DNA of 48,852 nt. Source: a virus. A program made the position numbers and the translations under genes. Under the pieces are notes generated by a model. The model worked only from the letters and a program-made list of their open reading frames with translations. It had not been told where the DNA came from and made no database searches. The stretch lies in the IMG/VR virus record IMGVR_UViG_3300010399_000003, positions 1 through 48,852 of that record; one strand, 5' to 3'. Numbering within the stretch: the first letter of the stretch is position 1; each line of letters opens with the position of its first letter. Below are positions 4,920 through 22,272 of the stretch, piece by piece.

Positions 4920-6537
4920 ACCGGATTTCACCAAGTGCCGTCTTGTCCAATTGGCAGACGGCACTTGGTCCGGCGTGAAAGAGCACGTCAAGCTCGGTGT
5001 GCGAGCTTTGCTAGCTAATCCCTATTTCGGACTCTTGGACGAAATGGGAGCTATGAAGTCAGCACAAACAATCATCGCCGCGCAGTTTCTCTTCGAACAG
5101 GGCGTCATTGATCAGGTGTTGGTCGTTGCGCCAAATTCGGTTCGTGATGTATGGTTCGATGAGGAACTCGGTGAATTGCAGAAACATCTCTTCACACCGT
5201 CTATCATCCAACTCTATCATAGTCGTACAAGGGAGTGGTATTTCCAACCGGAAAAGAAACCGCACTTATTCTGGATCATCACGAATTATGAGTTCATTCG
5301 TGCAGAACCGCGGCTCGCTGAATTGTTGCCGCTAGTCGGGCCGAAGACGCTCCTCGTACTTGATGAATCCAGCGCGGTCAAAAGTTACGGCGCGAAGCAA
5401 ACACAAGCCTGTTTCAAACTCCGAAAGCAATGCGGTCGTATCGTTATCCTGAATGGCACACCCATTGCAAACAACCCGATGGATATGTTTAGTCAGGGTA
5501 ATCTCATGCATCCGGATATTCTCGACTGTCGTGGGATTACGCATTTCCGAGCGCGATACGCAATCATGGGCGGTTACGTGGTGCGGACTGCGTGGGGCAG
5601 CCATCCGACACAGATTGTTGGTTATCAACATCTTGATGATCTTCAACGTCGTTTCGCGCCATATGTGTTACGACGCTTGAAACGCGATTGTCTCGATTTG
5701 CCACCAGTCTTGCCGGCTGTAACGCTGACAGCAACGCTCACCCCTGCCGAATGGAAAATTTACAAGGAGATGCGTGATGACCTCGTGGCGTGGCTATCGG
5801 ATGCGACTGTTTCTGTGGCTGCTCAAACGATTACAAAAGTCCTTAGACTCTCGCAAATCACCAGTGGGTTCATCGGCGGTTTGGAACCAGAAATCCTCGA
5901 GGATTTGAATGACGGAAGACCAGATTGGCTTCCGGCTCTTGGGAATCCTAATGGTGGTTATCGTCATCCTTTGGATCCTGCTGACACGACCCGAGAGATA
6001 GGACGGGCCAAGCTCGATGTGTTCTATGAGTGGCTCGACGAACAATTCGAAGCAGATCACAACCTCAAGCTCCTGATCTGGTGCCGCTGGATTCCAGAGC
6101 TTCAACGGTTGCTCAAAGAGCTCGCCGAGCGATATCCAAAAGCGGAACTCGGATGTATTGCTGGGAAGGCGTTGCTTGGCAGTACGAAGAATCAGGAACG
6201 ACAGACTGCGCTCCGATTGCTCGATCCTCGCACTGCGCCTGCTGGCCCGGTGCTAGTTGGCGGGACGTATGGAACTGGTGCGCTGGGACTGAATCTAACT
6301 GCGTGTCATACGATGGTCAAGATGAGTCACGACTATTCATATTGGAAGGCGATTCAGACAGATGCACGCATCGATCGACCTGGTCAGACACAACCTGTAT
6401 CACAATTCGACATCGTTGCAGTTGGTCCTCAAGGGCAAAAGACGATAGATCACGTGATTGTCAAGGCGCTTCGTTCGAAAGAAGAAGTGGCGGATTACAC
6501 GACTTCTGCATGGATTCACGCTCTGACAGAATCGTAA
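4903..6537 (+). CDS. SNF2/RAD54-family helicase (SF2 ATPase)
   Basis: Motif II LVLDESSAVKS and motif III RIVILNGTPIANNPMDMFS (SNF2 'LTGTPIQN'-like). C-terminal helicase lobe present. Start is 4903 or 4870. Confidence 0.8.
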   Translation: MLVAPEPDFTKCRLVQLADGTWSGVKEHVKLGVRALLANPYFGLLDEMGAMKSAQTIIAAQFLFEQGVIDQVLVVAPNSVRDVWFDEELGELQKHLFTPSIIQLYHSRTREWYFQPEKKPHLFWIITNYEFIRAEPRLAELLPLVGPKTLLVLDESSAVKSYGAKQTQACFKLRKQCGRIVILNGTPIANNPMDMFSQGNLMHPDILDCRGITHFRARYAIMGGYVVRTAWGSHPTQIVGYQHLDDLQRRFAPYVLRRLKRDCLDLPPVLPAVTLTATLTPAEWKIYKEMRDDLVAWLSDATVSVAAQTITKVLRLSQITSGFIGGLEPEILEDLNDGRPDWLPALGNPNGGYRHPLDPADTTREIGRAKLDVFYEWLDEQFEADHNLKLLIWCRWIPELQRLLKELAERYPKAELGCIAGKALLGSTKNQERQTALRLLDPRTAPAGPVLVGGTYGTGALGLNLTACHTMVKMSHDYSYWKAIQTDARIDRPGQTQPVSQFDIVAVGPQGQKTIDHVIVKALRSKEEVADYTTSAWIHALTES

Positions 6538-9591: not shown

Positions 9592-9651
9592 TGTCGTTTG
9601 CAGGTCGCGACAAACCGTCCACCTAGACCTGTCAGCCAGGAGCAATGGCAC

Positions 9652-10413
9652 ATGAGCACTGAACTCGAGAAAGCAAGTTCCGCGGAAATGGCTCGGCCCG
9701 ATTTCGTCACGCAAACGCGGGAAGGCACCGAGCACATTACCAATGCCGACATGCAAATCCCGCGCATGATGTTGGCACAGAAGATGTCGCCGGAGGTCGA
9801 TGACGGCGATGCGAAGCGCGTTCCCGGCCTGAAGGTCGGCGACATGTTCAACGGGTTGACGCATGAAATCTACGGCCGCGGTCCGGTGCAGTTCGTCATC
9901 CTGCGCGCCGATCCGCCACGCTGGGTGGAGTTCATTCCTCGCGAAGAGGGTGGTGGTGTCAAGGACCCGAACGTGCCGGCGAACGACCCGCGGACCGCGT
10001 TTGGGAAGGACGGTTCCAAACCGGCCGCGACGAAGTTCTACGACTACATCATTCTCCTGATGCCGCTTGGCAACGATCCGTTGGCGCGCATGGTGGCGCT
10101 GTCGTTCAAATCCACCGGCCTCAAGATTGCCAAGCAGCTGAACGCGCTCATCAAGCTGCGGAACGCGCCGATTCACGCAGGCGTGTACACCCTGACCAGC
10201 GTGGATACGCAAAATTCGCTCGGCAAATTTGCGATCTTCAACGTCGCCAATGCGGGCTGGGTCACGGATAAAGTCCTCTACGAGCAGCTCGGGCAAATTT
10301 CGGTGTCGATGAAGGACAAGAAGATCGATATCGAGCGGGATCCGGATGAATTCGTGGATCCGGATGCGCCGGACGCGGAACGCGAACCGACTGGCAACGT
10401 CGGTCGGATGTAG
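9652..10413 (+). CDS. hypothetical protein (about 253 aa)
   Basis: ATG at 9652 preceded by AGGAG; the listed ORF begins at an upstream TTG. Confidence 0.6.
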   Translation: MSTELEKASSAEMARPDFVTQTREGTEHITNADMQIPRMMLAQKMSPEVDDGDAKRVPGLKVGDMFNGLTHEIYGRGPVQFVILRADPPRWVEFIPREEGGGVKDPNVPANDPRTAFGKDGSKPAATKFYDYIILLMPLGNDPLARMVALSFKSTGLKIAKQLNALIKLRNAPIHAGVYTLTSVDTQNSLGKFAIFNVANAGWVTDKVLYEQLGQISVSMKDKKIDIERDPDEFVDPDAPDAEREPTGNVGRM

Positions 10414-10761: not shown

Positions 10762-10930
10762 GGTTGGATGGGAGTTCTTTTGCGAACATGCAAACGAGGT
10801 GCCGCGCGTGTGTCCGTGTCCGGATACGTGTCCATGCCGGCAAGGGAAGTGTGGTCCAGTTGCTGAATGGGACGGTGATATTGCTGATGATTTCCATCCG
10901 GGCCACCCGCGATGGTTTGGAGACCACTAA
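10718..10930 (+). CDS. possible Cys-rich small protein
   Basis: CPCPDTCPCRQGKCGP; overlaps neighbours and start unclear. Confidence 0.25.
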   Translation: MRRFGRCRLDDFASKVGWEFFCEHANEVPRVCPCPDTCPCRQGKCGPVAEWDGDIADDFHPGHPRWFGDH

Positions 10931-11198: not shown

Positions 11199-11240
11199 AT
11201 CCGGGACCGCCCGGCATCCGCTAGGGCGGTCCTGGCTTTA
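11199..11240 (+). terminator. rho-independent terminator-like hairpin
   Basis: GGGACCGCCC-ggcatccgcta-GGGCGGTCC perfect 9-10 bp stem followed by TGGCTTT. Confidence 0.5.
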
Positions 11241-11279
11241 CACCGTAAAGACAGATGCTTAACCGGACAAGGTGCATGC

Positions 11280-11620
11280 TTGAGCGGTTTCGCTCGTAAA
11301 TACTTGTGAATAAAGGACTTATAGTCGTCAGAAACCGCTAAATTACTTAAGAATTCTTGACGTTTTCGGACCGTTTCGACGACCCGTAACTTATTGAAAA
11401 CAAAGGACTTAACCCCGTAGGGGACCGAGGTGGCGTCATCAAAATGAGGCGTAGAAAAAGCAAAAGTCCTTGATTACAGAAACGTAATGCCCGCTAAAGC
11501 CTTATTTTACTAGGGTTTGCGACGCAAGAAATATTTTTGACGCAAATTACAGGCGTTTTTTGACGGCCGTAAACCGTTCTAAATAGGCGTGTTACGGTGA
11601 TTTCCAAAACTTAGCGCATT
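11280..11620. promoter_or_regulatory. AT-rich intergenic regulatory region with repeated short motifs; origin or promoter cluster candidate
   Basis: AAAGGACTTA twice direct and once inverted (AAGTCCTT). TTGACG three times. CAGAAAC and CGTAAC repeated. No credible ORF. Confidence 0.4.
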
Positions 11621-12134
11621 TTCGGCCCTATACTTGTTCCAGGCGCTGTCGTGTTAAGCGCCTCGCGGTTGGGGACGGGTGCGCCGTAGTTGCTGGTTAC
11701 CGTCGGGAGACGGAAGCTAGTTAGCTCGAGCTCATGAAGCACCAGAAGGCCAATCGTGATGAAGCCGGATTGGTGTAGGGCCGTCTGGCGGCTGTGTTCA
11801 AGCGCGGGGACCAGGAGCGTTTCCGTAGGCAGATTCGACAAGCCGCTGCCAGCGCGTTCATCCATCTTAAGCCTTGGGGCTGCCGGCCCTCAGAGAGTCT
11901 GTGGCCTATCCCTTCAGGTGGGAGCCTAACGGCTGGCTGTTTAGCTGGGTCAATGTTAATGGGTGTAGCAAACCCGCTCTCGTTACTGTGGTCGTCCTGG
12001 TGGTTTCACCGGGTTCGTTCGCGGTCTAGGAGGAAAAATCGCCCGCCTAAAATCTACCCGAAATAAATGTGTCCTAGAGCCCACAATCTGCGGCTGCGCG
12101 ACGATAGGTAGAGGGACGGCGGTCTAACCTTAGC

Positions 12135-12176
12135 CGACCGGGGCCGGTATCATCCGGCCCCGGTTCACTTTTCCGG
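12135..12176 (+). terminator. terminator-like hairpin
   Basis: CCGGGGCCGG-tatcat-CCGGCCCCGG perfect 10-bp stem followed by TTCACTTTT. Confidence 0.5.
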
Positions 12177-12178
12177 AA

Positions 12179-12236
12179 CCAGAAACCGTGGTGGAGAACC
12201 ACGGTTGCCCGAATGGACGGGCCTGATGAGGTTCCA
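12179..12236 (+). promoter_or_regulatory. conserved intergenic cassette copy A
   Basis: CCAGAAAC, then hairpin CGTGGTGGAGAACCACGG, then GAATGGACGGGCCTGATGAGGTTCCA, then ATG. Confidence 0.55.
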
Positions 12237-12422
12237 ATGCGTAAAGTCACGACGAAGTCCCACCGTAAGTCTGTTTCCCAGAAACAACCGTTCGTCAACA
12301 CCGTAATGTGTCAGTGGTTCGCACTGTGCAACCGCCCCGCGACCGGAACGACGCGTCATCCGGCGCTCGGTAACGTGCCGACCTGCGACCGGTGCCATAA
12401 CTTCGCGACGGAGAAGCGGTAA
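12237..12422 (+). CDS. zinc-ribbon small protein
   Basis: ATG directly after the conserved GGCCTGATGAGGTTCC leader; CQWFALC ... CDRCHN Cys pairs. Confidence 0.5.
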   Translation: MRKVTTKSHRKSVSQKQPFVNTVMCQWFALCNRPATGTTRHPALGNVPTCDRCHNFATEKR

Positions 12423-12604
12423 TGTCAAAAACGAGATTGCTCAAGCTCATCGAACTTTACTTCACAGGCGGTCCGGAAGATTTCAAGAGGGCTGTTGAAA
12501 GCCTCAGTCATCCTGACCAGAACACGGTTGCCATGTGGCTGCACGAGCTCAATAAGTTAGCTGGCGAAGCGGTCGGGGTTCTCGATTGCCGGAGGAAGTC
12601 ATGA
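12422..12604 (+). CDS. hypothetical protein
   Basis: TAATG overlap; GGAG SD. Confidence 0.5.
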   Translation: MSKTRLLKLIELYFTGGPEDFKRAVESLSHPDQNTVAMWLHELNKLAGEAVGVLDCRRKS

Positions 12605-12993
12605 AGAAAAAATCCAGGAAGCAATCAGCTCGTCATCAGGAAGAAGCCGCCGCGCGAAAAGCTGTCAGAGAATACGACGCCCGAATCAAGAGGATTAAGG
12701 CGCTCGTCACGCATTCTATAGACGGAAGTCCGCTGAAAAGATTCCGTCCGACAGGACGATACACGATTGTGACCCCTGATTCGGTTCAAATCGGGTTCTG
12801 GGTTTCTTCGTGGTGCTTGCCGAAAGGAATTCGCGCTGGTCAGGTCTTTCGGGTCATGGCTGTGGAAGGCGCGGTGTCGCTGCAAGAACCTGGGCACCCG
12901 GGATGGATGGAACCTCCTGGGTTCATGCTTCGCCGTCTTCCTCGCAAGAGCTACAAGATTCTCAATCCTTCCGCAACAGCTCGGACACTCTGA
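12601..12993 (+). CDS. hypothetical protein
   Basis: ATGA overlap; basic N-terminus MKKKSRKQSARHQEE. Confidence 0.5.
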   Translation: MKKKSRKQSARHQEEAAARKAVREYDARIKRIKALVTHSIDGSPLKRFRPTGRYTIVTPDSVQIGFWVSSWCLPKGIRAGQVFRVMAVEGAVSLQEPGHPGWMEPPGFMLRRLPRKSYKILNPSATARTL

Positions 12994-13001
12994 GGTAATC
13001 C

Positions 13002-13262
13002 ATGGCTGAACAGAACGATTTCGAGAAGTCCTTCGAGGAAGCAACCCGCGGTCTGTCACGCGACGACCGCGAAGTGGTGCGGTGCCTGTTCGTCGGCGCG
13101 ATTGGTCGACCGTCGGTGTTCTACTCATCGAAAATCTTCGCGGCGGCGTCCGCTATCGCGAAGGATATGGGTTGGTGGCGGACGACTCCGGGTGCGGCGT
13201 CGCAGATGAAGCGGCGTAAGGCTGGAAAGCGTGGGTCGGATTGGGGCGGGAGAGGTATCTAA
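13002..13262 (+). CDS. hypothetical protein
   Basis: 86-aa ORF; ends in a TAATG overlap. Confidence 0.5.
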   Translation: MAEQNDFEKSFEEATRGLSRDDREVVRCLFVGAIGRPSVFYSSKIFAAASAIAKDMGWWRTTPGAASQMKRRKAGKRGSDWGGRGI

Positions 13263-13459
13263 TGGGCAACGGGTTCGTCAATCAATACGGGCACCCACTT
13301 GGTGGGTGCCTGTTCGGCACGATGGTCGCCGGTCGGTCGGCTCACAGTATGCGGTGCGCGTGCGCCAATTGTTCAATGTGGCGCAGCCAGAAGGCCGGTC
13401 AGCACCGAGCGGCGCAGAAACGTCGGATGGAGCGTGCAGCCAAGCGGAGGCAGAAATGA
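13262..13459 (+). CDS. hypothetical small basic protein
   Basis: TAATG overlap with the upstream gene. Preferred over the frame-1 ORF 13231.., whose first half is Arg-rich and looks spurious. Confidence 0.4.
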   Translation: MGNGFVNQYGHPLGGCLFGTMVAGRSAHSMRCACANCSMWRSQKAGQHRAAQKRRMERAAKRRQK

Positions 13460-13473
13460 GAACTCAAGGAGTC

Positions 13474-13656
13474 ATGACTCACGGAACGCGGGTCAGGGTT
13501 CAGAAGTCGAAAGGCAAGCGTGCGTCGTGGCTCGTCATTATGGAAAATGATGAAGAGTCCATCACGCTCGCTGAATTCCCGGTCACCAAAAACGGAACGA
13601 TGGATGCAAAGGAGTGCGCCAACGACTTCCGGTGGATTTGCGGCGCGTGGTCGTAA
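13474..13656 (+). CDS. hypothetical small protein
   Basis: ATG preceded by a perfect AAGGAG at 6-nt spacing. An alternative ATGA-overlap start lies at 13456. Confidence 0.45.
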   Translation: MTHGTRVRVQKSKGKRASWLVIMENDEESITLAEFPVTKNGTMDAKECANDFRWICGAWS

Positions 13657-13734
13657 GGAGCTAGAAACGGCCGACCTGAGGATTTCCAAACTTAGGTCGG
13701 CGTCGCCTGAATTAACAGGCCTGATGAGGTTCCC
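13654..13734 (+). promoter_or_regulatory. conserved intergenic cassette copy B
   Basis: TAAGGAGCTAGAAAC, then hairpin GCCGACCT-gaggatttccaaactt-AGGTCGGC, then GAATTAACAGGCCTGATGAGGTTCCC, then ATG. Confidence 0.6.
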
Positions 13735-14019
13735 ATGTCCAAGAAGAAAGTCGTTCGTCCCGCCGCACTGTCGCTGAAATCCATGCGTGCCATTCGGAAA
13801 GCGGTGTCACAAGCCGAAGACAAGTTGTATGTCGCTATCGGCCTCCTCGAAGACCAGATGGAGATTTTCGACCACGAAGACGCAACCGCAGCCGAGCTGC
13901 GGATGTCCGATGACCTGGAGTCGGCGCGTGATGCCGGCGAAGACCTCGCGGACTATTTCAAGCACCTGAACGATGCATTGGACCGCATCAAGGTGGCGAA
14001 GAAGGATGGTCGGAAGTAA
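13735..14019 (+). CDS. hypothetical acidic protein
   Basis: Preceded by the full conserved cassette (hairpin plus GGCCTGATGAGGTTCC leader). Confidence 0.55.
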   Translation: MSKKKVVRPAALSLKSMRAIRKAVSQAEDKLYVAIGLLEDQMEIFDHEDATAAELRMSDDLESARDAGEDLADYFKHLNDALDRIKVAKKDGRK

Positions 14020-14666
14020 TGGGGATGCGGCGCTCGACTCGCCAGGAGCTCCGCAAGCTGCGCGAAATTTGCCGGGAAGCACTGGACGGGGTCCGGTGCT
14101 TCCTCTGCAAAGAGCTCATTCTCCAATCGGATAACTGCTATGGTCCCGGCGATGGCGAGGGTTCACCGTTCGAAGTCGGCATTACCATCCATCACGCCGA
14201 CGGGAACCATTCGAACAACGACAAGAAGAATCGCAAGTTAGTTCACACGAAGTGTCACAAATCTCATCACCTCAAGGAGCGGCACGCTCAGCGTCGTGCC
14301 GAAAAGCGAATGGCCAAATCAGCCGCAGCGCCGCGTCTCGTGAAAGGGTTCCATGGGTCCGAGCTCGCTCTGAAATTGAAAGCCGCATTGGACAAGGTCA
14401 AGAGCGACGGCGGCGTGAAGTATCCGGCTCGCAAGCAGAAGTCCACGAAGAAGTCCGGCGATCGTCATGCGTGGGCGAAGAAAATCTTCAACGCAACTCC
14501 GCCTGGGTCGCTTCACGATTATCTCGGCGTGCCTCGCGATAAAAAGATTCCTATCGGCAAATTGAAATGGGCAACTCGTCAAACGAAGACCGCGCTCGAC
14601 AAGAAGTTCGCAGCGAAAGCGGCAATGACCCTGCGGTTCGCGATGAAGCGGGCGGCGGCTCGCTGA
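14019..14666 (+). CDS. HNH endonuclease with a basic C-terminal domain
   Basis: ITIHHADGNHSNNDKKNRKLVHTKCHKSHH carries the HNH core (HH-x-DGN ... N ... CH-x2-H). The C-terminus GKLKWATRQTK...AAKAAMTLR is paralogous to the 14756 protein. Confidence 0.7.
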   Translation: MGMRRSTRQELRKLREICREALDGVRCFLCKELILQSDNCYGPGDGEGSPFEVGITIHHADGNHSNNDKKNRKLVHTKCHKSHHLKERHAQRRAEKRMAKSAAAPRLVKGFHGSELALKLKAALDKVKSDGGVKYPARKQKSTKKSGDRHAWAKKIFNATPPGSLHDYLGVPRDKKIPIGKLKWATRQTKTALDKKFAAKAAMTLRFAMKRAAAR

Positions 14667-14755
14667 AATCAGGGACCGGTAGGATTTCCAAACTTAGGCT
14701 CGGCAAGCGTTCGTCCACTCGTCGTCGTAAACCCAATCGTTCAGGTAGGTGTGTC

Positions 14756-14950
14756 ATGGCTAAGCAGAAGCGCGTCACTCGTCGTCGTCGTGTGGTGGCT
14801 GGTCCGTTCGCTCGCGTGCTCGGCGTGAAGTCGAAGGACGAGGTCGCCCTCGGAAAGATGAAGTGGGTGACGCGCCTGCGAGGTTCGAAGAAGAACCTCA
14901 AAATTGCGGCAGCCGCAGCGCAGTATCTCAGGCGTCAGCGGCTTTCGTAG
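14756..14950 (+). CDS. small basic protein paralogous to the C-terminus of the 14019 HNH protein
   Basis: LGVKSKDEVALGKMKWVTRLRGSKKNLKIAAAAAQYLR aligns with LGVPRDKKIPIGKLKWATRQTKTALDKKFAAKAAMTLR. Confidence 0.45.
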   Translation: MAKQKRVTRRRRVVAGPFARVLGVKSKDEVALGKMKWVTRLRGSKKNLKIAAAAAQYLRRQRLS

Positions 14951-15007
14951 TTCATTCCGGGGACCTCGTTCTGCCGGGGACGAGGTCCCCACTCTCAAGG
15001 TGGTTCC

Positions 15008-15220
15008 ATGTCAGTCTGTCCAAAGTGCCGAAATCATTTTCAGCGTGGCAATTGCCCGCATTGTGATGAACGATTTCACCAGCTCAAGACCGACCGGTCG
15101 CTCATCTGCGACCGAGAGGAAGAAGAGTGGTTCTCGATGAAACTCGAGCAAGAAGCGCGTCAGGAACGCGCTCGGCGGTCGGCGGAAACCAGGAAGCGAC
15201 TCAGGGAGCAGAGGTCATGA
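15008..15220 (+). CDS. zinc-finger small protein
   Basis: CPKCRNHF...CPHCDERFH. Confidence 0.5.
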   Translation: MSVCPKCRNHFQRGNCPHCDERFHQLKTDRSLICDREEEEWFSMKLEQEARQERARRSAETRKRLREQRS

Positions 15221-15423
15221 GATATACGATTCAGCCATTCGTCCCGGACCGCCCGGCGATTGTGCCGATGAGCGCGGATACAATCAATGAAGCGTTCAAA
15301 CTCGCGAAAGCGTATCTGGCACTCAATCGAGATGCGGTGTGCGTCATCAAGAACGACGCGAATCCATATGCCCTGACCGTCGCAGTGCTGGCCGGTCGCG
15401 ATGTGCGTGGGGTGGCGGCATGA
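15217..15423 (+). CDS. hypothetical protein
   Basis: ATGA overlap with the upstream stop. Confidence 0.5.
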   Translation: MRYTIQPFVPDRPAIVPMSADTINEAFKLAKAYLALNRDAVCVIKNDANPYALTVAVLAGRDVRGVAA

Positions 15424-15644
15424 AGGAATTGCATTGCAATCAACGGGTTGTTGCGACAGATTCCTACTTCGTCTGTGGTGGTAATCCGGAGAAGAACAGT
15501 GGCGGTGGAGTTATCGGTTCACGCCAGACGTGGGCTGATGCGATCACCCTCAAACTCGAAGCCATCAAGCGTGGTTATCGTCACGTGCAGATTTTCACGT
15601 GGAACGAAATGATGGAGGATAGTCGTGAAATTCACTCGGCCTGA
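15420..15644 (+). CDS. hypothetical protein
   Basis: ATGA overlap with the upstream stop. Confidence 0.45.
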   Translation: MKELHCNQRVVATDSYFVCGGNPEKNSGGGVIGSRQTWADAITLKLEAIKRGYRHVQIFTWNEMMEDSREIHSA

Positions 15645-16212
15645 AATGCTCAAAGCTGGGATGGAGCTCATGGCTCGGTGGTGTGCCCTGAATGGCGTCG
15701 CTCAGCCACGAGTGGAAATCTACGAGGGTCGGGAAACGGATTTCGGAGTCTGCGCTTACTATCGCGACGACGTGATTCACATCTGGCCCGACGCCTGTGC
15801 CCACGTGGGTTATGGTGGTCGGGCCTGGTCTTATCCTGGTTACGTCGTCGACCGAACGCCCTACGGCGTTATCCAGCACGAACTTGGTCATCACGTCGAC
15901 GACGCGGCTGGTTCACGTGGTGGTCGGGTGGCTCATCGATGGCGTGCGGCGACGAAAGAAGAACCGCTGACCGGCTATTGTCCAAACAATAATGAGTGGT
16001 TCGCCGAGATGTTTCGGCTCTTCGTCACAAATCCGGAACTGCTCAGTCTGGTTCGGCCGCGCACTCATCATCTCATGCAGATGGAGTGGCCGCACCCGGT
16101 TGAAACCCGTCGATGGCAGGACGTGCTGAATCACACCGAGCGGCAAGTGAACGCCGCGTGGAACAAGATTTCCAATGTTCAACGAAAGGAAGTGCAAGAT
16201 GGACTCTTCTAA
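15625..16212 (+). CDS. HExxH zinc metallopeptidase-like protein
   Basis: VIQHELGHHVDD matches the zincin HExxH motif; GTG start with GGAGGA upstream. Confidence 0.55.
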   Translation: MKFTRPEMLKAGMELMARWCALNGVAQPRVEIYEGRETDFGVCAYYRDDVIHIWPDACAHVGYGGRAWSYPGYVVDRTPYGVIQHELGHHVDDAAGSRGGRVAHRWRAATKEEPLTGYCPNNNEWFAEMFRLFVTNPELLSLVRPRTHHLMQMEWPHPVETRRWQDVLNHTERQVNAAWNKISNVQRKEVQDGLF

Positions 16213-16408
16213 GTTCATTCATGACTTGATGAAGTTACCAACGCTGCCTGAGGCCGAGCGGAATGCGCGGCTCGGTCCGTGCCCGTGGTGCCCGAATTTC
16301 GACAAGAACGACCCGGCGAATAAGAACAAGTCGCACACGATGTGCATCGTCTGCGAGCATACCCTGAACAAGCAGCTCGCTGAAAAGGAGCACGGCAATG
16401 GCCGCTAG
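16175..16408 (+). CDS. zinc-finger small protein
   Basis: CPWCPNFD...CIVCEH. Confidence 0.45.
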   Translation: MFNERKCKMDSSKFIHDLMKLPTLPEAERNARLGPCPWCPNFDKNDPANKNKSHTMCIVCEHTLNKQLAEKEHGNGR

Positions 16409-17342
16409 CCTCTTGGACAATCTCGAACCGACAATCACGCCAACGGAGCCGATGCTGGCTGCGCCAGAAAGCCAGCTGTGCGTGGAGGACTGGACGGCGT
16501 GGGCAATTGAACGGAAGTACGATGGTCATCGGATGATCATCTATCGGATCGGGAAATCCGAGCTCCACGTCTTTGCGCGACCGACTGGCGACGGTCGCAT
16601 GATTGAACGGACGAGCAAGCTCCCGGCGGAATTGATTCAGGAGCTGAAGAAGTTGCCGCCGTCGGTGACGGATGGCGAACTGCTTGGTGGCGATACGGGC
16701 ACCGACGTCACGCGGAAGGACCTCGCACACAACCTGTCGATGGTGATCTTCGACTTGCTGGAGGTCGATGGCATCGATTGGAAGAACGAACAATATGATT
16801 TCCGCCGGCAAGGATTGGTCGAGATCTTCAATCGGCTCAAGTTGAACCCGTCACGAGTGCAGCTGGCGGAATCACACTTGCTGCGGAGCGAAGGTGACGC
16901 GTTGAAATTTGTTCAGCGTGTCTTCAAAGAAAACGGCGAGGGAGCCATTCTGAAATTCCGGCGCGGTCGCTACCTGCCTGGCAAGCGGAAGAAAGAACTG
17001 TGGGTCAAGATCAAGCGCAAGGAAAGCGCGGCGCTGCCGATTGTCGGTTTCGAACCATCACGTGGCGAGGTGCGGTTTCCTGGTCACCCGTTTGCAATCG
17101 TCAGGTTGATGGATGACGACGGCAACGAAACTACGTGTAAGACGAAGACCGATGAGGAATTGGCGAAATTCGTCGCGCTCTGGCAGAAGAAATTTCCAAC
17201 GGTGCCGCTGAATCAGGTGACGGTGGAGATGGCGAAAAAACACCCAGCGGTCGGACGGTTGTTGCGCATTGAGTTTCCACGTCGCACTCGAACTGGTGGC
17301 TATCAGGGTCCGGTCATCTGGGATCGATGGGAAGACGAGTAG
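16398..17342 (+). CDS. ATP-dependent DNA ligase
   Basis: Motif I KYDGHR (KxDG, adenylated lysine), FDLL, DGELL, EGAILK and the C-terminal LWVKIK motifs. Confidence 0.85.
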   Translation: MAASLLDNLEPTITPTEPMLAAPESQLCVEDWTAWAIERKYDGHRMIIYRIGKSELHVFARPTGDGRMIERTSKLPAELIQELKKLPPSVTDGELLGGDTGTDVTRKDLAHNLSMVIFDLLEVDGIDWKNEQYDFRRQGLVEIFNRLKLNPSRVQLAESHLLRSEGDALKFVQRVFKENGEGAILKFRRGRYLPGKRKKELWVKIKRKESAALPIVGFEPSRGEVRFPGHPFAIVRLMDDDGNETTCKTKTDEELAKFVALWQKKFPTVPLNQVTVEMAKKHPAVGRLLRIEFPRRTRTGGYQGPVIWDRWEDE

Positions 17343-17417
17343 GATCTAGAAACCGTGGCCGACGATTTCCAAAGTTAGGTCGCGGTCGCCGGAATGAACC
17401 GGCCTGAGGAGGGTCCG
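17340..17417 (+). promoter_or_regulatory. conserved intergenic cassette copy C
   Basis: TAGGATCTAGAAAC ... GATTTCCAAAGTTAGGTC ... GGAATGAACCGGCCTGAGGAGGGTCCG then TTG. Confidence 0.6.
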
Positions 17418-17879
17418 TTGGCGAAGGATGATTTCGTGACTCGTGGGTTGAAGTCGATGGCGAAACGCGAATCGGCGAAGAAGAAAGGAGCGACTCGGCG
17501 GCGGCGTGACTGGTCGGCGACTGACGCGATGGTGGCAGCGCGAAAGCCTCTGATCAAATCAGGAACTGTGTTTTCTGAATCGGAGCAGGAGGCGATTCGA
17601 AGTGCGGCGCGACGTGTGTGGGATGAATGTGGGTATGACTGTTTGCTCGCGACGGCCGACGAAGAAGGTAAGCCGGTCGAGCGTGTATCAATCAGTCGGG
17701 ATCAAGTCATCGAGATTGCACTCGATGCGGGACGAGCCGAACACTTCTTGCAGCGGGACCTGAAGAAAGGTTCGTCCGTGGTCACGGCGGAATTCATGAA
17801 GCGGTATCAGGCTGCGAAATATGACGAACTCATCGCAGTCGTGAAGCCGGCATTTCCATTCGAACGATACGGGTTGTAA
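17418..17879 (+). CDS. hypothetical protein
   Basis: TTG start placed immediately after the conserved GGCCTGAGGAGGGTCCG leader, as in four sister genes. The listed ATG at 17394 lies inside the cassette. Confidence 0.5.
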   Translation: MAKDDFVTRGLKSMAKRESAKKKGATRRRRDWSATDAMVAARKPLIKSGTVFSESEQEAIRSAARRVWDECGYDCLLATADEEGKPVERVSISRDQVIEIALDAGRAEHFLQRDLKKGSSVVTAEFMKRYQAAKYDELIAVVKPAFPFERYGL

Positions 17880-17885
17880 AGGAGC

Positions 17886-18236
17886 GTGCTCATGTCCGGA
17901 GAGATGAAGAATGAATTGGTCAAGTTCGTGTGTGGCGTTGAAGATCACGTCCTGCACGTCTCCATCTATCGCGGGAAGAAGGACATCCACACGATGTGCA
18001 AGTGGAAGACCCCGGATGGGAAGACCAAGACCGGGTGCCGGGCATATTTCGAGCTCCACGAGGTGGACGAAGCACAGAAAGCGTTCAAGAAGCTGCTGAA
18101 GGAGGCGGAAGAGCAGGGTTGGAAGGTGCTGGAGAAGACGCAGCGGTCGACCGGCTTCAACTCGATCCCGGCTGCACCGAAACCGGCATCGTCCAGGGTG
18201 AGCCAGCTGGCCACTCCAGCGTCGGGCAAGAAGTAG
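17886..18236 (+). CDS. hypothetical protein
   Basis: 116-aa ORF with AAGGAG SD. Confidence 0.5.
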   Translation: MLMSGEMKNELVKFVCGVEDHVLHVSIYRGKKDIHTMCKWKTPDGKTKTGCRAYFELHEVDEAQKAFKKLLKEAEEQGWKVLEKTQRSTGFNSIPAAPKPASSRVSQLATPASGKK

Positions 18237-18319
18237 GATCTAGAAACGCGGGAGGGCGGACAAATAGGGTCCGCCCTCCGGAGTCGTCGCCGGAATGAAC
18301 CGGCCTGAAGAGGATCCGT
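18234..18319 (+). promoter_or_regulatory. conserved intergenic cassette copy D
   Basis: TAGGATCTAGAAAC, then hairpin GGAGGGCGGAC-aaatagg-GTCCGCCCTCC, then GGAATGAACCGGCCTGAAGAGGATCCGT, then ATG. Confidence 0.6.
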
Positions 18320-18784
18320 ATGTCACGAAAGTTGCCGGAACGTTTTCTCAAGTCTGATGGCGAGTCGTTCTGCTCGGTCTGCGACAAGGTCCGAGCGCTC
18401 TGCCGGATGTGCGATCGGTGTCGCGAGCACTGTGAGTGCCCTGAATCATGCGAAGTCTGCGGTGGTCTGACCGGTCCGTTGGCCAGTGCAGTCGCCGACG
18501 TCCAAAAGTTAGAAGTCTGCGGCTGCGTCGATTGCATCATCTGTGGTGAGAAGACTCATCGGGATTACGCGGATTACGGATACGGCCTGACGGAAGAAGA
18601 GGCGTTCGAGAACTCGGGAACGACTGCCACGGCAGTCTGCGAAAAGTGCGTGGCGAAAGGCAAGACTCCGCCGCCGGCAAGTCAGCGTGGGTTTGGCACG
18701 GTAGAACCGCATCGGTGCCCGGAATGCGGTGGTGCGCTCGGTGATTGGGGTTGCGTGACAGTCGGTTGTAACGGAGGACGATGA
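18320..18784 (+). CDS. Cys-rich multi-CxxC zinc-binding protein
   Basis: At least 12 CxxC pairs (CSVC, CRMC, CDRC, CEVC, CGCVDC, CIIC, CEKC, CPEC). Follows the conserved cassette. Confidence 0.55.
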   Translation: MSRKLPERFLKSDGESFCSVCDKVRALCRMCDRCREHCECPESCEVCGGLTGPLASAVADVQKLEVCGCVDCIICGEKTHRDYADYGYGLTEEEAFENSGTTATAVCEKCVAKGKTPPPASQRGFGTVEPHRCPECGGALGDWGCVTVGCNGGR

Positions 18785-19068
18785 TGGAAATGTTCAAGCT
18801 GCGTATCACGAATGTCGATATGGATGGCTACTGCGGCCGAACACACCACCCGGCGAAAAGCGACGAGGGCCTCGTGGTCGTTCCGTTGGGCATGGACGGG
18901 TGCTGGGCCGGTGAGTCATCCTACAATCCGTTGCTTGACGGTGGTCAAGCGGCGAGCGTCAAGCAGGGTTTGGATCAGGAATGGCATGAAATCTGCTGGA
19001 CCTGTCTGACCGAAGACGGCCGCACGCTCGAGCTCATGAACCATGAAGTGGAGCTCGTCCATGGCTGA
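18781..19068 (+). CDS. hypothetical protein
   Basis: ATGATG overlap with the upstream stop. Confidence 0.5.
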   Translation: MMEMFKLRITNVDMDGYCGRTHHPAKSDEGLVVVPLGMDGCWAGESSYNPLLDGGQAASVKQGLDQEWHEICWTCLTEDGRTLELMNHEVELVHG

Positions 19069-19318
19069 AGAACGTCGCACACCGCAAACAATCGAATTGG
19101 ATTGTCCTCCTGGCGATCCGCGGCCCGGTGATCTCATTGAACAAGTCATTGAGGGCACCGGTCTGCCGCTGCGCGACGCGGTCAGCCGGTTCTTCGGCAA
19201 CTGGACGTGGAATTACGAAGATGTTTCCCACGAGAAGTGGATGGAAATCCGTCCGATCTTAAAGCAGCGCATTACCGCGCTCTACGAGTCTGGCAAAATT
19301 CGATACGGGAGTTGGTGA
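19061..19318 (+). CDS. hypothetical protein
   Basis: ATGGCTGA overlap with the upstream stop. Confidence 0.45.
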   Translation: MAEERRTPQTIELDCPPGDPRPGDLIEQVIEGTGLPLRDAVSRFFGNWTWNYEDVSHEKWMEIRPILKQRITALYESGKIRYGSW

Positions 19319-19521
19319 TGGCGAATCGTTACGAAGTGGTTGTCGGCAACGTCGGAACGGTATATGATGGGTCGAGTCTGGATGCGACGTTGAAAGTGTT
19401 CAAGGAATACCAAGACCAATCGAAGAGCGGCGTCGGTCGTGCAGCCGGCGAGGATGTCACGGTGCTGAAGAATGGCACCGTGCGTTGGGATTACGATGGT
19501 AAAAGTCGGAGGCTTCGCTAA
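19318..19521 (+). CDS. hypothetical protein
   Basis: TGATG overlap. Confidence 0.45.
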   Translation: MANRYEVVVGNVGTVYDGSSLDATLKVFKEYQDQSKSGVGRAAGEDVTVLKNGTVRWDYDGKSRRLR

Positions 19522-19817
19522 TGCCTATCGAACATAACAAGAGCGGAAGCACGACGCTCACCGGCGACTCAATCGATTTCTTCCGGCTGGCTATGCTCAA
19601 GTCGGCGGTCGGCTTGGAGTTGAAAGGGATTCGCGTGACGCGCGGTCCGGTCGTCTGGAAGCGGGTCAAGAACGAATTCAACCTGAAAGCCAAAACCAAA
19701 AAGGAAGTCTATCAGTGGCTCTGCGCCGAGGTCGAACGGTTGAAGGCGTTGCAAGAGCACGTGGTTCACGAAGACGGTCGGGTCAAGCGCGAAGTCGGCG
19801 GGAAGGAGATTCAGTGA
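19521..19817 (+). CDS. hypothetical protein
   Basis: TAATG overlap. Confidence 0.5.
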   Translation: MPIEHNKSGSTTLTGDSIDFFRLAMLKSAVGLELKGIRVTRGPVVWKRVKNEFNLKAKTKKEVYQWLCAEVERLKALQEHVVHEDGRVKREVGGKEIQ

Positions 19818-19876
19818 AATTGAAGAAGCAGTTGGATCGGCTCAGTCGGCCAATCAAGATCTATTGAGCGGTCCGA

Positions 19877-20095
19877 GTGGCCTTCGGTCGGAAGGTCCCA
19901 AACGGATGGCTCCCGGTGTTCAGTGTGGACACGGTGGCTGAGGCGCGTCGGCTGATTACGTTGGCCTGTCCGATGGATGACAGCGGCAACTACTATGCTC
20001 GAGAACTTGCCGAAGAACAGACGCTCGACAACTTGCAGAAGTTCGGCGATAAGTTGGCGCTGGCTTATGCGCATATGAAGAGGATGAATCCATGA
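19877..20095 (+). CDS. hypothetical protein
   Basis: 72-aa ORF. Confidence 0.45.
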   Translation: MAFGRKVPNGWLPVFSVDTVAEARRLITLACPMDDSGNYYARELAEEQTLDNLQKFGDKLALAYAHMKRMNP

Positions 20096-20556
20096 ACATC
20101 ACGCACGCCGACCACGGGTTGGCTCCTGAACACCTCGCGTTTATTCAGCAGTGCATTCTCGATCATACGGAGCAACTGGGTTTGACCGGCTTCCTCCTGA
20201 CCACCGTGACAATGCCGGATTGGTTGCCGACGCTCGACTGTGGGTTGCATGGTCCGCGGATGGGTGATCCGGTGGTTCCGGAAAACGACGTCTTCTACCA
20301 TGTCCGTGGTTCCCGAAAGTGGGCGTCTCGGTTGTGCGACCGTCCGGCCCGACCGAGTCATCAGATGACGATCATCGCGGCGCTGGATGTGTCACTGAAA
20401 ACGGTCAACGTCATCACGGCATTCGGCGGTCCGTTGGCGCCGAAAGAACCCGGCGATCCGACGTTGATGACGATGGATGAAATTCTCGAATCGCGGAAGT
20501 TCTGGTCCGAGCACGCGCTCAGTGGTGCTCGCTTTGGAGATGGAGGACGAGCGTAA
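20092..20556 (+). CDS. hypothetical protein
   Basis: ATGA overlap. Confidence 0.5.
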   Translation: MNITHADHGLAPEHLAFIQQCILDHTEQLGLTGFLLTTVTMPDWLPTLDCGLHGPRMGDPVVPENDVFYHVRGSRKWASRLCDRPARPSHQMTIIAALDVSLKTVNVITAFGGPLAPKEPGDPTLMTMDEILESRKFWSEHALSGARFGDGGRA

Positions 20557-20756
20557 TGGAAAACGTGAAGCGACCCACGGTCAAACTTGTCGGTGCCGAC
20601 GGCAACGTGTTCAACATCATCGCGCTGTGTAAGGTCGCGGCGCGCAAATCGGGATGGACGAAAGAGAAAATCGATGCGCTGGTTCAGGATCTGATGCACA
20701 GTCGCGATTACGACGACGTCTTGGGCAAGGTCATGGAACAATTCGACGTGGAGTAG
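20556..20756 (+). CDS. hypothetical protein
   Basis: TAATG overlap. Confidence 0.5.
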   Translation: MENVKRPTVKLVGADGNVFNIIALCKVAARKSGWTKEKIDALVQDLMHSRDYDDVLGKVMEQFDVE

Positions 20757-20781
20757 ACAGATTTCCAAACTTAGGTCAATC

Positions 20782-21051
20782 ATGATGAAAAAGATTTTCT
20801 TCCTCGCGGCTGGCGCCGGATTCATGGCGCTGGCCATCGCGACCTGTGTGCAGGGAACACAGCAAGCATCACAATTACAGGCGGAGAAGCCGACGGTCGT
20901 GGTGCCGGATTGGCGACTGGTCGGCACTTTGGAAAACAGCGCAGGGCAACCAGCTGTCGCGCTGTGGTTCAATCGCCTCACGCGCACATGCTTGGCTGTC
21001 GGTGTTGATGGGACGGTGACGAAATTGTGGGATAGTGATTGTGAGGAGTAA
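20782..21051 (+). CDS. secreted or lipoprotein-like small protein
   Basis: N-terminal signal-peptide-like MMKKIFFLAAGAGFMALAIATC with a lipobox-like AIATC. Preceded by the GATTTCCAAACTTAGGTC motif. Confidence 0.55.
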   Translation: MMKKIFFLAAGAGFMALAIATCVQGTQQASQLQAEKPTVVVPDWRLVGTLENSAGQPAVALWFNRLTRTCLAVGVDGTVTKLWDSDCEE

Positions 21052-21264
21052 ATGCTGAATCTGACTATCGGTGCCACTTACATCGTCCGACCAGGTGATC
21101 ACTTCGAGTTAGTGCTGCCGGATGGCACGACGCTGAGTGTCGAGCAAACGCAAGATGACTTTTCCATCATTCATACGAATGACGAAGTCGCGTATCGCAC
21201 GCCGACGAGTCAATTCGCGAAAGAGAACGAAGCAGATCAACCGCGTGTGACGGGTCGGAAGTAG
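21052..21264 (+). CDS. hypothetical protein
   Basis: TAAATG junction with the upstream gene. Confidence 0.45.
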   Translation: MLNLTIGATYIVRPGDHFELVLPDGTTLSVEQTQDDFSIIHTNDEVAYRTPTSQFAKENEADQPRVTGRK

Positions 21265-21327
21265 GAGCTAGAAAGGTGGTCATCGTGACCACCTCGCCCG
21301 AATCAACGGGCCTGAGGAGGTTCCTGC
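21262..21327 (+). promoter_or_regulatory. conserved intergenic cassette copy E
   Basis: TAGGAGCTAGAAA, then hairpin GGTGGTCA-tcg-TGACCACC, then GAATCAACGGGCCTGAGGAGGTTCCTGC, then ATG. Confidence 0.6.
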
Positions 21328-21618
21328 ATGGAAGTGGGACAGTTCATGAAGTTGGAAGGATACGATCAGGTGGCGAAGGCCCAGACGGATTATGGGTTCG
21401 TCGGTGTCTATTCCAACAACCACAATTTCCTCTTCGTCGTGACGGTCGAAGAGGAAGCGATGAGCGATGGGGAGGGCATTCACGGCCGCGTCGAAGGTGA
21501 GTATCCGTATCACAGCGACGATGAGCAGGGCGCGGCGGAAATCAGTGGTTGGCGCGATGCGTATGAAAAGGCGCTCATGCAGTTGGTCCAATTGACGATG
21601 AGGTTCACCCATGAGTGA
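21328..21618 (+). CDS. hypothetical acidic protein
   Basis: Follows the conserved cassette and leader. Confidence 0.5.
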   Translation: MEVGQFMKLEGYDQVAKAQTDYGFVGVYSNNHNFLFVVTVEEEAMSDGEGIHGRVEGEYPYHSDDEQGAAEISGWRDAYEKALMQLVQLTMRFTHE

Positions 21619-21844
21619 GCAGAAATCGGTGACAGAATCCGAGCGTCGCACGTTAGGACTCGTCATGGCGCTGCTCGAGACGATCAAGGAAACCGGAGCA
21701 CAAGGCGCGCCATCCGGTGTGTGCTATACGGCGTTCATGATGCACGGTATATCCTACGTCGAATATCTGAAACTCGTCGATATCGCGTTGCGGACCGGCA
21801 AGGTCCGTCAGTCCGCCAACTGTTTCTATTGGATTGGAGAATAA
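21611..21844 (+). CDS. hypothetical protein
   Basis: Overlapping start. Confidence 0.5.
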   Translation: MSEQKSVTESERRTLGLVMALLETIKETGAQGAPSGVCYTAFMMHGISYVEYLKLVDIALRTGKVRQSANCFYWIGE

Positions 21845-21846
21845 TC

Positions 21847-22272
21847 ATGTCAAAGCCGATGCTGAACCTCAAGATTAACGTGAAGGAAGAGAACGTCAAT
21901 CGCGCCTGCACGCGGAACTCGCACTGCTGCATGATCGCCGACGCCGTTCGGGATCGTCTGAAGTGGGCGACGTTCATCGAAGTAGATGCACAGTCGATTC
22001 GCTTCAACGATCGGAAGAAAGGCATCCGCTACATCTACCTGACTCCACCGGAAGCACAGAAAGCCATCGTGCTCTTCGACCAGGGAGTCAAAGTCAAGCC
22101 GTTCAGCTTCCACCTGTCACAGGGATTCATGAAGACGCGGGTGATGCGAGCACGTCAGAAGAAAGCGAAGAAGACGTCGCGCGAATACAAGAAGGCGAAT
22201 CCGACGAAGAAGTCGACGAAGCGGACTCCGGCGTTCATTCGGCAGTTCGGTCTCCGCGGTCTGACCAAGTAG
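21847..22272 (+). CDS. hypothetical protein with a Lys/Arg-rich C-terminus
   Basis: ATG 2 nt after the upstream stop; C-terminal KKAKKTSREYKKANPTKKSTKRTP. Confidence 0.5.
   Translation: MSKPMLNLKINVKEENVNRACTRNSHCCMIADAVRDRLKWATFIEVDAQSIRFNDRKKGIRYIYLTPPEAQKAIVLFDQGVKVKPFSFHLSQGFMKTRVMRARQKKAKKTSREYKKANPTKKSTKRTPAFIRQFGLRGLTK

Follow-up and report, generated by a model that had tools for sequence, protein, structure and literature searches.

The window analysed here is a 48,852-nt DNA of viral origin (IMG/VR record IMGVR_UViG_3300010399_000003, taken at its full length), which carries five repeated cassettes on the + strand, all of them within positions 12,174-21,327. What kind of element these cassettes are, and what they may do to the transcript that contains them, is the question raised by this locus. 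An earlier, sequence-only reading had described two shared boxes around a variable hairpin and had proposed either RNase III-type processing sites or terminators combined with a shared leader, or a phage promoter with a standardised translation initiation region (TIR). In our view, the five elements are very probably hammerhead ribozymes of the type II circular permutation that cut the transcript, because the order and the sequence of their parts map one-to-one onto the hammerhead numbering in all five copies. Elements of this kind are known, hammerhead clusters around phage genes having been on record since 2011, but the present members are unannotated.

Anatomy of the five cassettes

From 5′ to 3′, each cassette is composed of the following parts: (stop codon) GGANCY-A-GAAA(C/G), a variable hairpin, (G)U-H, GCCNG-AAUNNA-CNGGC, CUGANGA, GGNUCC, a gap of 1-3 nt and a start codon (coordinates in Table 1). 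In terms of the hammerhead numbering (i) the 5′ box consists of the 3′ strand of stem II, an unpaired A and G12-A13-A14-A15.1; (ii) the variable hairpin is stem III, which closes with U16.1 and is followed by H17; (iii) GCCNG-AAUNNA-CNGGC is stem I; (iv) CUGANGA is the core from C3 to A9; and (v) GGNUCC is the 5′ strand of stem II. Loops cap both stem I and stem III, and stem II is open, in all five copies, which is the type II order. Stem I has 5 bp, stem II 6 bp with a bulge, and stem III 8-11 bp. The core strand reads CUGAUGA in two copies, CUGAGGA in two and CUGAAGA in one, GAA is followed by A15.1 in 5/5, and position 17 is U in copy 1 and C in the other four.

The covariance model of the family (R1) was run unfiltered on both strands of the whole window. 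It returned exactly five matches (54.5-69.6 bits, E 1e-14 to 3e-19), the sixth-best reaching only 11.1 bits (E 0.56), and this large drop in score sets the number of copies at five and no more. The two shared boxes around a variable hairpin are present, on the + strand, at each of the five sites where they had been described. In copy 4, cleavage was placed at the second of two GUC triplets, because R1 aligns ...CGUC/GCCGG.

Several details of the first description required correction. The stem of the variable hairpin, said to be always perfect, contains a bulged G beside the junction in copy 2, a bulged A in copy 3 and an internal loop in copy 4. A second hairpin of 5 bp inside the 3′ box (GCCNG/CNGGC) had been overlooked; its fourth pair varies in a compensatory manner among the copies (C-G, U-A, G-C). 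Within CUGANGAGG only the fifth base varies (U, U, G, A and G in copies 1-5). The extended Shine-Dalgarno (SD) sequence UGAGGAGGU, which had been ascribed to the 3′ box in general, is found in copies 3 and 5, while copies 1 and 2 carry UGAUGAGGU and copy 4 carries UGAAGAGGA; the base that differs among these versions is hammerhead position N7. Unconstrained folding of each copy, a check that had been suggested, gave the same three-way junction as the minimum free energy (MFE) or the centroid structure in all five cases, with CUGANGA and (A)GAA unpaired and z-scores of -2.2 to -4.5.

Covariation and core conservation among related viral loci

A search for the motif in related viruses, likewise suggested earlier, was performed in IMG/VR; the pattern used specified stem I and CUGANGAGG only, GAAA, U16.1 and H17 being absent from it. 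The scan returned 20 loci (some of which are referred to below by L numbers), and at many of them the elements form dense, co-oriented arrays. Of the 52 pattern instances, 41 have an upstream sequence that can be parsed as GAAA, a hairpin and UH, none of which had been specified. Six other instances (L001/L002, L005/L017/L020 and L013) have a closed stem II followed by GAAA; they represent the same core in a different circular permutation, a behaviour typical of hammerheads. These closed-stem-II relatives are type III-like, and most of them keep an unpaired A at or near G12. The largest array comprises 13 elements on one contig (L012 and L014), followed by arrays of 9 (L003), 9 (L008), 7 (the L018/L007 contig), 6 (L004) and 5 (the window).

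The proposed helices are supported by covariation. Among 27 compact members, 95% of the pair cells are standard, vs. 26-48% when the 3′ partners are slid. R1 finds 69 elements in the viral loci and the window, corresponding to 63 distinct sequences; in these, 96.5% of the cells are paired (29-44% in slid controls), double-sided compensatory changes occur in 14 of 17 pairs (219 cells), and 0 of 500 shuffled controls reach any of the five measures applied.

Such compensatory changes speak for an RNA-level element and against a promoter acting at the DNA level. They bear equally on the wider proposal that the cassettes are a DNA-level signal (phage promoter or intrinsic terminator) or a selfish repeat resembling miniature inverted-repeat transposable elements or repetitive extragenic palindromic sequences, devoid of RNA function. 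Stem I and stem II sequences are indeed homogenised within single genomes, several near-identical copies per genome suggest copy-and-paste spread, and a second conserved motif lies within the stem III loops of copies 2 and 3. Nevertheless, we consider this proposal extremely unlikely, since the compensatory changes include G-U pairs, whose asymmetry between the strands points to selection at the RNA level, and every copy has the orientation of the genes and fits exactly between stop and start. The terminator put forward in the sequence-only reading finds no counterpart, as stem III is followed by UC/GCC, no hairpin is followed by a U-tract, and none of the five sites was called in a terminator scan, which showed no excess. 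The same is true of the promoter: a sigma-70 scan revealed no enrichment and no call on the elements.

The pattern of conservation is that of a hammerhead core. In 59 distinct full-length members, C3, U4, G5, A6, G8, A9 and G10.1 are each present in 59/59, A15.1 and U16.1 also in 59/59, and G12, A13 and A14 in 58/59, while N7 is U in 30, C in 15, A in 7 and G in 7; H17 is C in 58 members, U in one and never G. The invariance of GAAA, U16.1 and H17 constitutes independent evidence, because these positions are outside the search pattern. This distribution bears the mark of selection on the catalytic core.

It also allows the weighing of another explanation, namely that the elements are hammerhead-derived but non-cleaving intercistronic modules, in which stem II joins the stop and start codons and masks the SD, until a terminating ribosome melts stem II and initiation is coupled to termination. 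The geometry suits such a module, as the stop codon abuts or overlaps the 3′ strand of stem II and the start codon lies 1-3 nt past its 5′ strand; catalysis might be reduced by the extra A beside G12 and by the lack of the canonical pseudoknot, and the Rfam scores are below threshold. We nonetheless regard it as improbable. C3, G5, A6, G8, G12, A13 and A14 are invariant in 58-59 of the 59 members, N7 drifts and H17 is never G; invariant catalytic positions next to a free N7 indicate selection for catalysis, beyond the mere maintenance of a three-way junction. Moreover, copy 1 has no upstream open reading frame (ORF) to which initiation could be coupled.

The family departs from published type II hammerheads in stem II, which has 6-9 bp in this sub-family. 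When stem II is paired optimally, its 3′ strand retains an unpaired A (or AA) in 54 of 55 distinct members: directly beside G12 in 26 members, including all five window copies, after one bp in 25 (a single A in 20, AA in 5) and after two bp in 2. G10.1, itself invariant, faces the dinucleotide UA or CA in the window and AC in many relatives, and pairs with C or U; the A that is left unpaired is on one or the other side of 11.1, adjoining G12 in the one case and 11.2 in the other. The 5-bp stem I is capped by a conserved hexaloop, A-A-U-N-N-A, the conservation of which derives in part from the search pattern.

A number of observations weigh against the hammerhead assignment. Copy 1 has U, not C, at position 17, and the extra unpaired A at or near G12, found in all members, is outside the textbook core. 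The pseudoknot between loop I and the 3′ tail is undetectable (the longest complement averages 3.40, vs. 3.48 in permuted pairs). The conservation of stem I and CUGANGAGG in the relatives is partly a matter of ascertainment, since most of them were fished with the pattern fixing both. In Rfam, neither the window nor 115 kb of relatives yields a match at the gathering score of any family, and a scan of copy 5 by itself returns no hammerhead.

As regards Rfam, no match at E ≤ 10 was obtained when the 9-kb region was scanned. Copy 1 scanned alone (86 nt) gave a full-model alignment with Hammerhead_II (RF02276) at 23.9 bits (E 0.0025; gathering score 37), which emerged only in the short scan because the filters are stricter with more sequence per scan. 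The miss reflects the seed of the Rfam model and not the definition of the class. With this evidence weak, the identification rests on the fold, the covariation and the core tests. As regards the pseudoknot, complements of loop I to the 5′ flank and to the stem III loop gave the same null outcome, and the variable positions of loop I showed no significant mutual information with the other positions tested. As to how stems I and II are docked in parallel in this form, our guess is a contact of loop I with the distal conserved C-G pairs of stem II or with the unpaired A. The unpaired A and the missing pseudoknot together point to an uncharacterised solution of tertiary stabilisation in type II hammerheads.

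Other classes of element were also considered and rejected: twister, pistol, hatchet and hepatitis delta virus (HDV)-like ribozymes, for which there were no Rfam matches, and tRNA-like punctuation, no tRNAs having been found.

Table 1. Coordinates and features of the five elements of the window (all on the + strand; positions are those of the window)
Feature	Copy 1	Copy 2	Copy 3	Copy 4	Copy 5
Element (type II)	12174-12237	13656-13735	17341-17418	18235-18319	21263-21326
R1 score, bits (E)	69.4 (3.7e-19)	54.9 (1.2e-14)	59.7 (4.1e-16)	54.5 (1.7e-14)	69.6 (3.4e-19)
Structure giving the three-way junction	MFE	centroid	MFE		MFE
Fold z-score	-4.46	-4.51	-2.22	-4.02	-3.38
Stem II 3′ strand	12175-12180 GGAACC	13657-13662 GGAGCU	17342-17347 GGAUCU (G17342 = last TAG base)	18236-18241 GGAUCU	21264-21269 GGAGCU
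Unpaired A	12181	13663	17348	18242	21270
G12-A14	12182-12184	13664-13666	17349-17351	18243-18245	21271-21273
Stem III (A15.1-U16.1)	12185-12205	13667-13703, loop with GATTTCCAAACTTAGG	17352-17386, loop with GATTTCCAAAGTTAGG	18246-18287, 11-bp distal helix and internal loop	21274-21294, pair 15.2-16.2 is G-C
H17	U 12206	C 13704	C 17387	C 18288 (second of two GUC)	C 21295
Predicted self-cleavage (3′ of H17 by hammerhead numbering)	12206/12207 GUU/G	13704/13705 GUC/G	17387/17388 GUC/G	18288/18289 GUC/G	21295/21296 CUC/G
Stem I	12207-12222 GCCCG AAUGGA CGGGC	13705-13720 GCCUG AAUUAA CAGGC	17388-17403	18289-18304	21296-21311
Core (C3-A9)	12223-12229 CUGAUGA	13721-13727 CUGAUGA	17404-17410 CUGAGGA	18305-18311 CUGAAGA	21312-21318 CUGAGGA
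Stem II 5′ strand	12230-12235 GGUUCC	13728-13733 GGUUCC	17411-17416 GGGUCC	18312-18317 GGAUCC	21319-21324 GGUUCC
SD	GAGG 12228-12231	GAGG 13726-13729	GGAGGG 17408-17413	GAGG 18310-18313	GGAGG 21316-21320
Spacer (nt)	5	5		6	7
Start codon	ATG 12237-12239	ATG 13735-13737	TTG 17418-17420 (likely)	ATG 18320-18322	ATG 21328-21330
Downstream ORF	61 aa (amino acids), Cys-rich	94 aa, then HNH endonuclease gene	153 aa	154 aa	96 aa

Stop-to-start placement and predicted processing of the transcript

The elements occupy the space between genes with considerable precision. Of 56 distinct members, 51 have, 5-16 nt past G10.1 (mode 7), a start codon from which an ORF of 40 codons or more can be read, and the upstream stop codon mostly ends at -3 to +2 relative to the first base of the element. 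In the window, the start codons follow the 5′ strand of stem II by 1-3 nt; the distances from the end of the 3′ box (1, 1, 1, 2 and 3 nt in copies 1-5) agree with those originally given. The statement that the 5′ box begins with the stop codon holds as a one-base overlap (TAG) for copies 3-5, becomes simple abutment for copy 2 (TAA 13654-13656) and fails for copy 1, which has no upstream ORF and is preceded by a terminator-like hairpin instead.

The conserved core itself provides the ribosome-binding site: GAGG is composed of G8, A9, G10.1 and G10.2 and lies 5-7 nt before the start codon in the window copies, and where N7 is G (copies 3 and 5) it is extended to GGAGG. This genome uses SD sites, as GGAG, GAGG or AGGA is found upstream of 23 of 42 ribozyme-free genes, vs. 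12% of random windows. The idea of a processing site with a shared leader and a standardised TIR is consistent with these strand-specific, stop-to-start RNA structures with GAGG at SD spacing. A sequence resembling the 3′ box of the ribozymes (CUGAUGAGGUUCC) was also observed at 21594-21613, before ATG 21611, where it reads GACGATGAGGTTCACCC-ATG with no ribozyme present; it may be either a remnant or a similar SD region.

Two loop I sequences contain an ATG in frame with the downstream ORF, at 12213 (AAUGGA, copy 1) and 17394 (AAUGAA, copy 3), so that mechanical ORF calling adds 24 nt of ribozyme to both genes. For copy 3, the sequence-only reading had already recognised that this ATG lies inside the box and that TTG 17418 is the likely start; the same applies to copy 1, where the likely start is ATG 12237. 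The practical consequences are wrong start calls at 12213 and 17394 and, more generally, a whole sub-family missed by standard Rfam annotation.

That the cassettes are processing sites is in keeping with the sequence-only reading, which differed as to the agent. In a rival explanation along its lines, a host endonuclease (RNase III or RNase E) would cut at the cassettes, or their hairpins would be protective, in either case together with a shared leader and TIR. Hairpins at gene boundaries next to a conserved SD-containing box do resemble the RNase III sites of the T7 early region, and the elements are strand-specific and intergenic. The helices, however, are interrupted and, with 5-11 bp, short for RNase III, whose sites have an extended duplex of about two helical turns, the unpaired boxes equal the hammerhead core base-for-base, the three helices co-vary as a junction, and nothing demands a protein nuclease; we therefore consider a host enzyme as the agent very unlikely. 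With single-stranded boxes identical to the hammerhead catalytic core, autocatalytic cleavage would be expected rather than cutting by RNase III.

Based on the hammerhead assignment, the following course of events can be proposed. On a long transcript of the early/replication module, each element would fold into the three-way junction and self-cleave 3′ of H17. The upstream product would end in the stem III hairpin with a 2′,3′-cyclic phosphate, and the downstream product would begin with a 5′-OH and carry the stem I hairpin, CUGANGA, the 5′ strand of stem II and, 1-3 nt further on, the start codon. After cleavage, stem II would be the sole link between the products (as a free cognate duplex, 6 bp and the unpaired A amount to about -7 to -10 kcal/mol), hence their separation would be expected. 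GAGG, engaged in the core and in stem II before cleavage, would become exposed as an SD upon separation of the products. The polycistronic transcript would in this way be divided into segments of 1.5, 3.7, 0.9 and 3.0 kb with hairpin-protected ends and a standard TIR. In bacterial RNA decay, hairpins, 5′-OH and cyclic-phosphate ends are expected to slow 5′-end-dependent and 3′-exonucleolytic degradation.

Direct observation covers the anatomy, the covariation at the RNA level, the invariance of the catalytic core and the placement of the ribozymes between stop and start codons; from these we infer in vivo self-cleavage, dissociation of the products, SD unmasking and stabilisation of the ends. 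To the unmasking of the SD after cleavage we give somewhat less than even weight. The composite proposal is doubtful: a distinct, unannotated type II sub-family (no pseudoknot, a 5-bp stem I with AAUNNA, a long stem II with an obligatory unpaired A), whose core doubles as the SD and in which cleavage and dissociation of stem II license translation of the downstream gene. If true, it would constitute a natural "cleave-to-translate" punctuation system for phage operons.

A remote variant is that segment ends carrying complementary hammerhead halves could re-pair and religate into circular or shuffled mRNAs, the stem II strands being near-identical among copies within several genomes. Perreault et al. 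sought such circular or shuffled religation products and found none (PMC3088659). In the window this variant is disfavoured: the stem II strands of neighbouring copies are fully compatible in only 2 of 4 segments, and the co-variation of the 10.3-11.3 pair in cis speaks for folding in cis rather than re-pairing in trans.

Genomic neighbourhood and accessory motifs

The window is a fragment of a tailed-phage genome, encoding thymidylate synthase, a DNA polymerase exonuclease subunit, SNF2 and UvrD helicases and an ATP-dependent DNA ligase, as well as an HNH endonuclease, a radical SAM protein, a peptidase and a tape-measure-like protein. The five ribozymes are situated in the + strand replication/early block and are co-oriented with its genes. 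Megablast of positions 12000-22000 against a phage collection gave no match, and no close deposited relative was found; a DNA ligase-based search of viral contigs likewise yielded no confirmed relatives. The array-bearing contigs found among the ribozyme-pattern loci are distant relatives, with 35-60% amino acid identity in helicases, ligase and other proteins. A scan of sequenced genomes with the ribozyme pattern produced two matches only, in metagenome-assembled genomes (MAGs) of an uncultured Pirellulaceae and a Chloroflexota, which gives a hint as to the host.

The placement of the ribozymes is partly shared with these relatives. In both L004 and L012, a ribozyme lies directly upstream of the homologue of ORF 17418-17879, and the L004 homologue of ORF 17886-18236 is directly followed, at the junction corresponding to copy 4, by a degenerate family member. 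The latter (9636-9691, - strand) scores 34.5 bits, reads AAAGAU where GAAA would be expected and has an additional G within its core; it has probably been inactivated. Upstream of the UvrD and DUF7168 genes, a ribozyme is present in the relatives and absent from the window. Within the window, a site on the - strand (40807-40872) contains the 11-mer GGATCTAGAAA, which recurs unchanged as the 5′ box of copies 3 and 4, followed 43 nt further on by GATGATCC; it is located just upstream of ATG 40769 of a minus-strand gene, has no stem I (R1 11.1 bits, E 0.56), and is possibly a decayed ribozyme relic in an oppositely oriented module.

A second + strand motif, (A/G)GATTTCCAAA(C/G)TTAGG(T/C)C, occurs as exact 15-mers at 13681-13695, 14683-14697, 17364-17378 and 20760-20774, and in weaker form at 11599, 16167, 22276 and 3644 (20 matches with up to 3 mismatches, vs. 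3.5 expected). Two of the exact copies lie in the stem III loops of copies 2 and 3 and two in ribozyme-free intergenic gaps; the one at 20760 is only 7 nt before ATG 20782, where there is no other SD. Sequence rather than pairing is kept, and the motif could serve as a promoter or an operator, or be bound as RNA by a protein. When GATTTCCAAASTTAGG was scanned against viral contigs, 37 single-copy matches were found in unrelated contigs; taking these scattered matches as chance, the motif is specific to this genome. In L004 (IMGVR_UViG_3300037070_008166; ribozymes at 4374-4463, 6383-6457, 10835-10916 and 12532-12612), several stem III loops share a motif of their own, ATCTGGCACCA(T/A) with the variant TGGTAGCACCAAG, whose sequence is unlike that of the loop motif of the window. 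Stem III loops may thus be a preferred site for phage-specific signals.

Approximately 1 kb upstream of copy 1 (11200-12173) contains no convincing ORF. Its AT-rich part carries three 27-nt direct repeats (11295, 11385 and 11568) ending in AAAGGACTTA, with an inverted copy at 11464-11475, which look like iterons or operators. The repeats are followed by a moderately structured stretch of 554 nt (z -2.3) and by a perfect 11-bp GC hairpin (12137-12164), whose UUCACUUUUC tail leads directly into stem II of copy 1. A possible role of copy 1 is the trimming of a long leader or of read-through transcripts.

Comparison with known systems

The first natural type II hammerheads were described by Perreault et al. 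(2011; PMC3088659), who reported clustered prophage hammerheads that flank genes and cleave polycistronic fragments of approximately 2 kb in vitro, and proposed that they process phage transcripts into operon- or gene-length mRNAs. Type II hammerheads located beside phage-like genes cleave in vivo in D. vulgaris (PMC8782182). The window elements have the same permutation as type II (RF02276) and the same CUGANGA, GAAA, A15.1-U16.1 and H17, and resemble the prophage examples in occurring as several co-oriented copies flanking single genes or short blocks in phage DNA. They differ in their helices: canonical type II hammerheads have a very short stem II, commonly of about 2 bp, and their fast cleavage depends critically on a Watson-Crick pseudoknot (at least 4 bp) that loop I forms with the 3′ tail (PMC3088659), whereas the sub-family described here has a stem II of 6-9 bp, an unpaired A or AA 0-2 bp from G12, a 5-bp stem I with an AAUNNA loop and no detectable pseudoknot. 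The difference is reflected in the Rfam score, which is 23.9 bits or nil, vs. a gathering score of 37. Literature searches, with incomplete coverage, returned no account of a core doubling as SD or of a pseudoknot-free bulged form. The signature strings of the sub-family were not found in the supplementary text of Perreault et al. (2011), whose alignment dataset is possibly not text, so that its unpublished status is unproven.

With hammerheads of types I and III, such as those of the satellite RNA of tobacco ringspot virus (sTRSV) and Schistosoma, the elements share the core, and the closed-stem-II relatives in L001, L005 and L013, which have an identical stem I module, are similar to type III. 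Types I and III rely on conserved loop nucleotides instead of a pseudoknot, a reverse-Hoogsteen U-A pair being a recurrent contact (PMC6155905). By analogy, the conserved A, A and U of loop I and the unpaired A could play a comparable role here, with the differences that the window copies have no loop II and that the unpaired A, at a depth of 0-2 bp, is nearer to the core than the known contact sites. The biological role of hammerheads, of which phage and bacterial DNA contains thousands, is still called open in reviews (PMC6155905, PMC6765202). The window and its relatives offer an unusually clean case for this question: a single contig carries as many as 13 co-oriented ribozymes, each of which exactly fills the space between a stop and a start codon and has an SD formed by G8-G10.2; this geometry sharpens "polycistronic RNA processing" into a specific hypothesis, that of SD release combined with hairpin-capped 5′-OH and 2′,3′-cyclic phosphate ends.

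The arrangement is also reminiscent of the RNase III sites of the T7 early region, where a polycistronic early transcript is cleaved between genes to give mRNAs with hairpin ends; the T7 sites, irregular hairpins of some 20 bp or longer, depend on a host protein for cleavage, in contrast to the window elements, which carry a ribozyme core and would need no enzyme. Closer in design are two groups of engineered parts, RiboJ-type insulators and hammerhead aptazymes that unmask a ribosome-binding site (RBS), both of them synthetic and usually derived from type I or type III hammerheads. As in RiboJ-type insulators, cleavage upstream of the RBS would generate a defined hairpin 5′ end and a standard TIR and decouple the gene, and as in the aptazymes, an RBS paired in a ribozyme stem would be released by cleavage. 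The difference is that the elements of the window are natural and arrayed, and that their SD is formed by G8, A9, G10.1 and G10.2 of the core itself and not by an appended stem.

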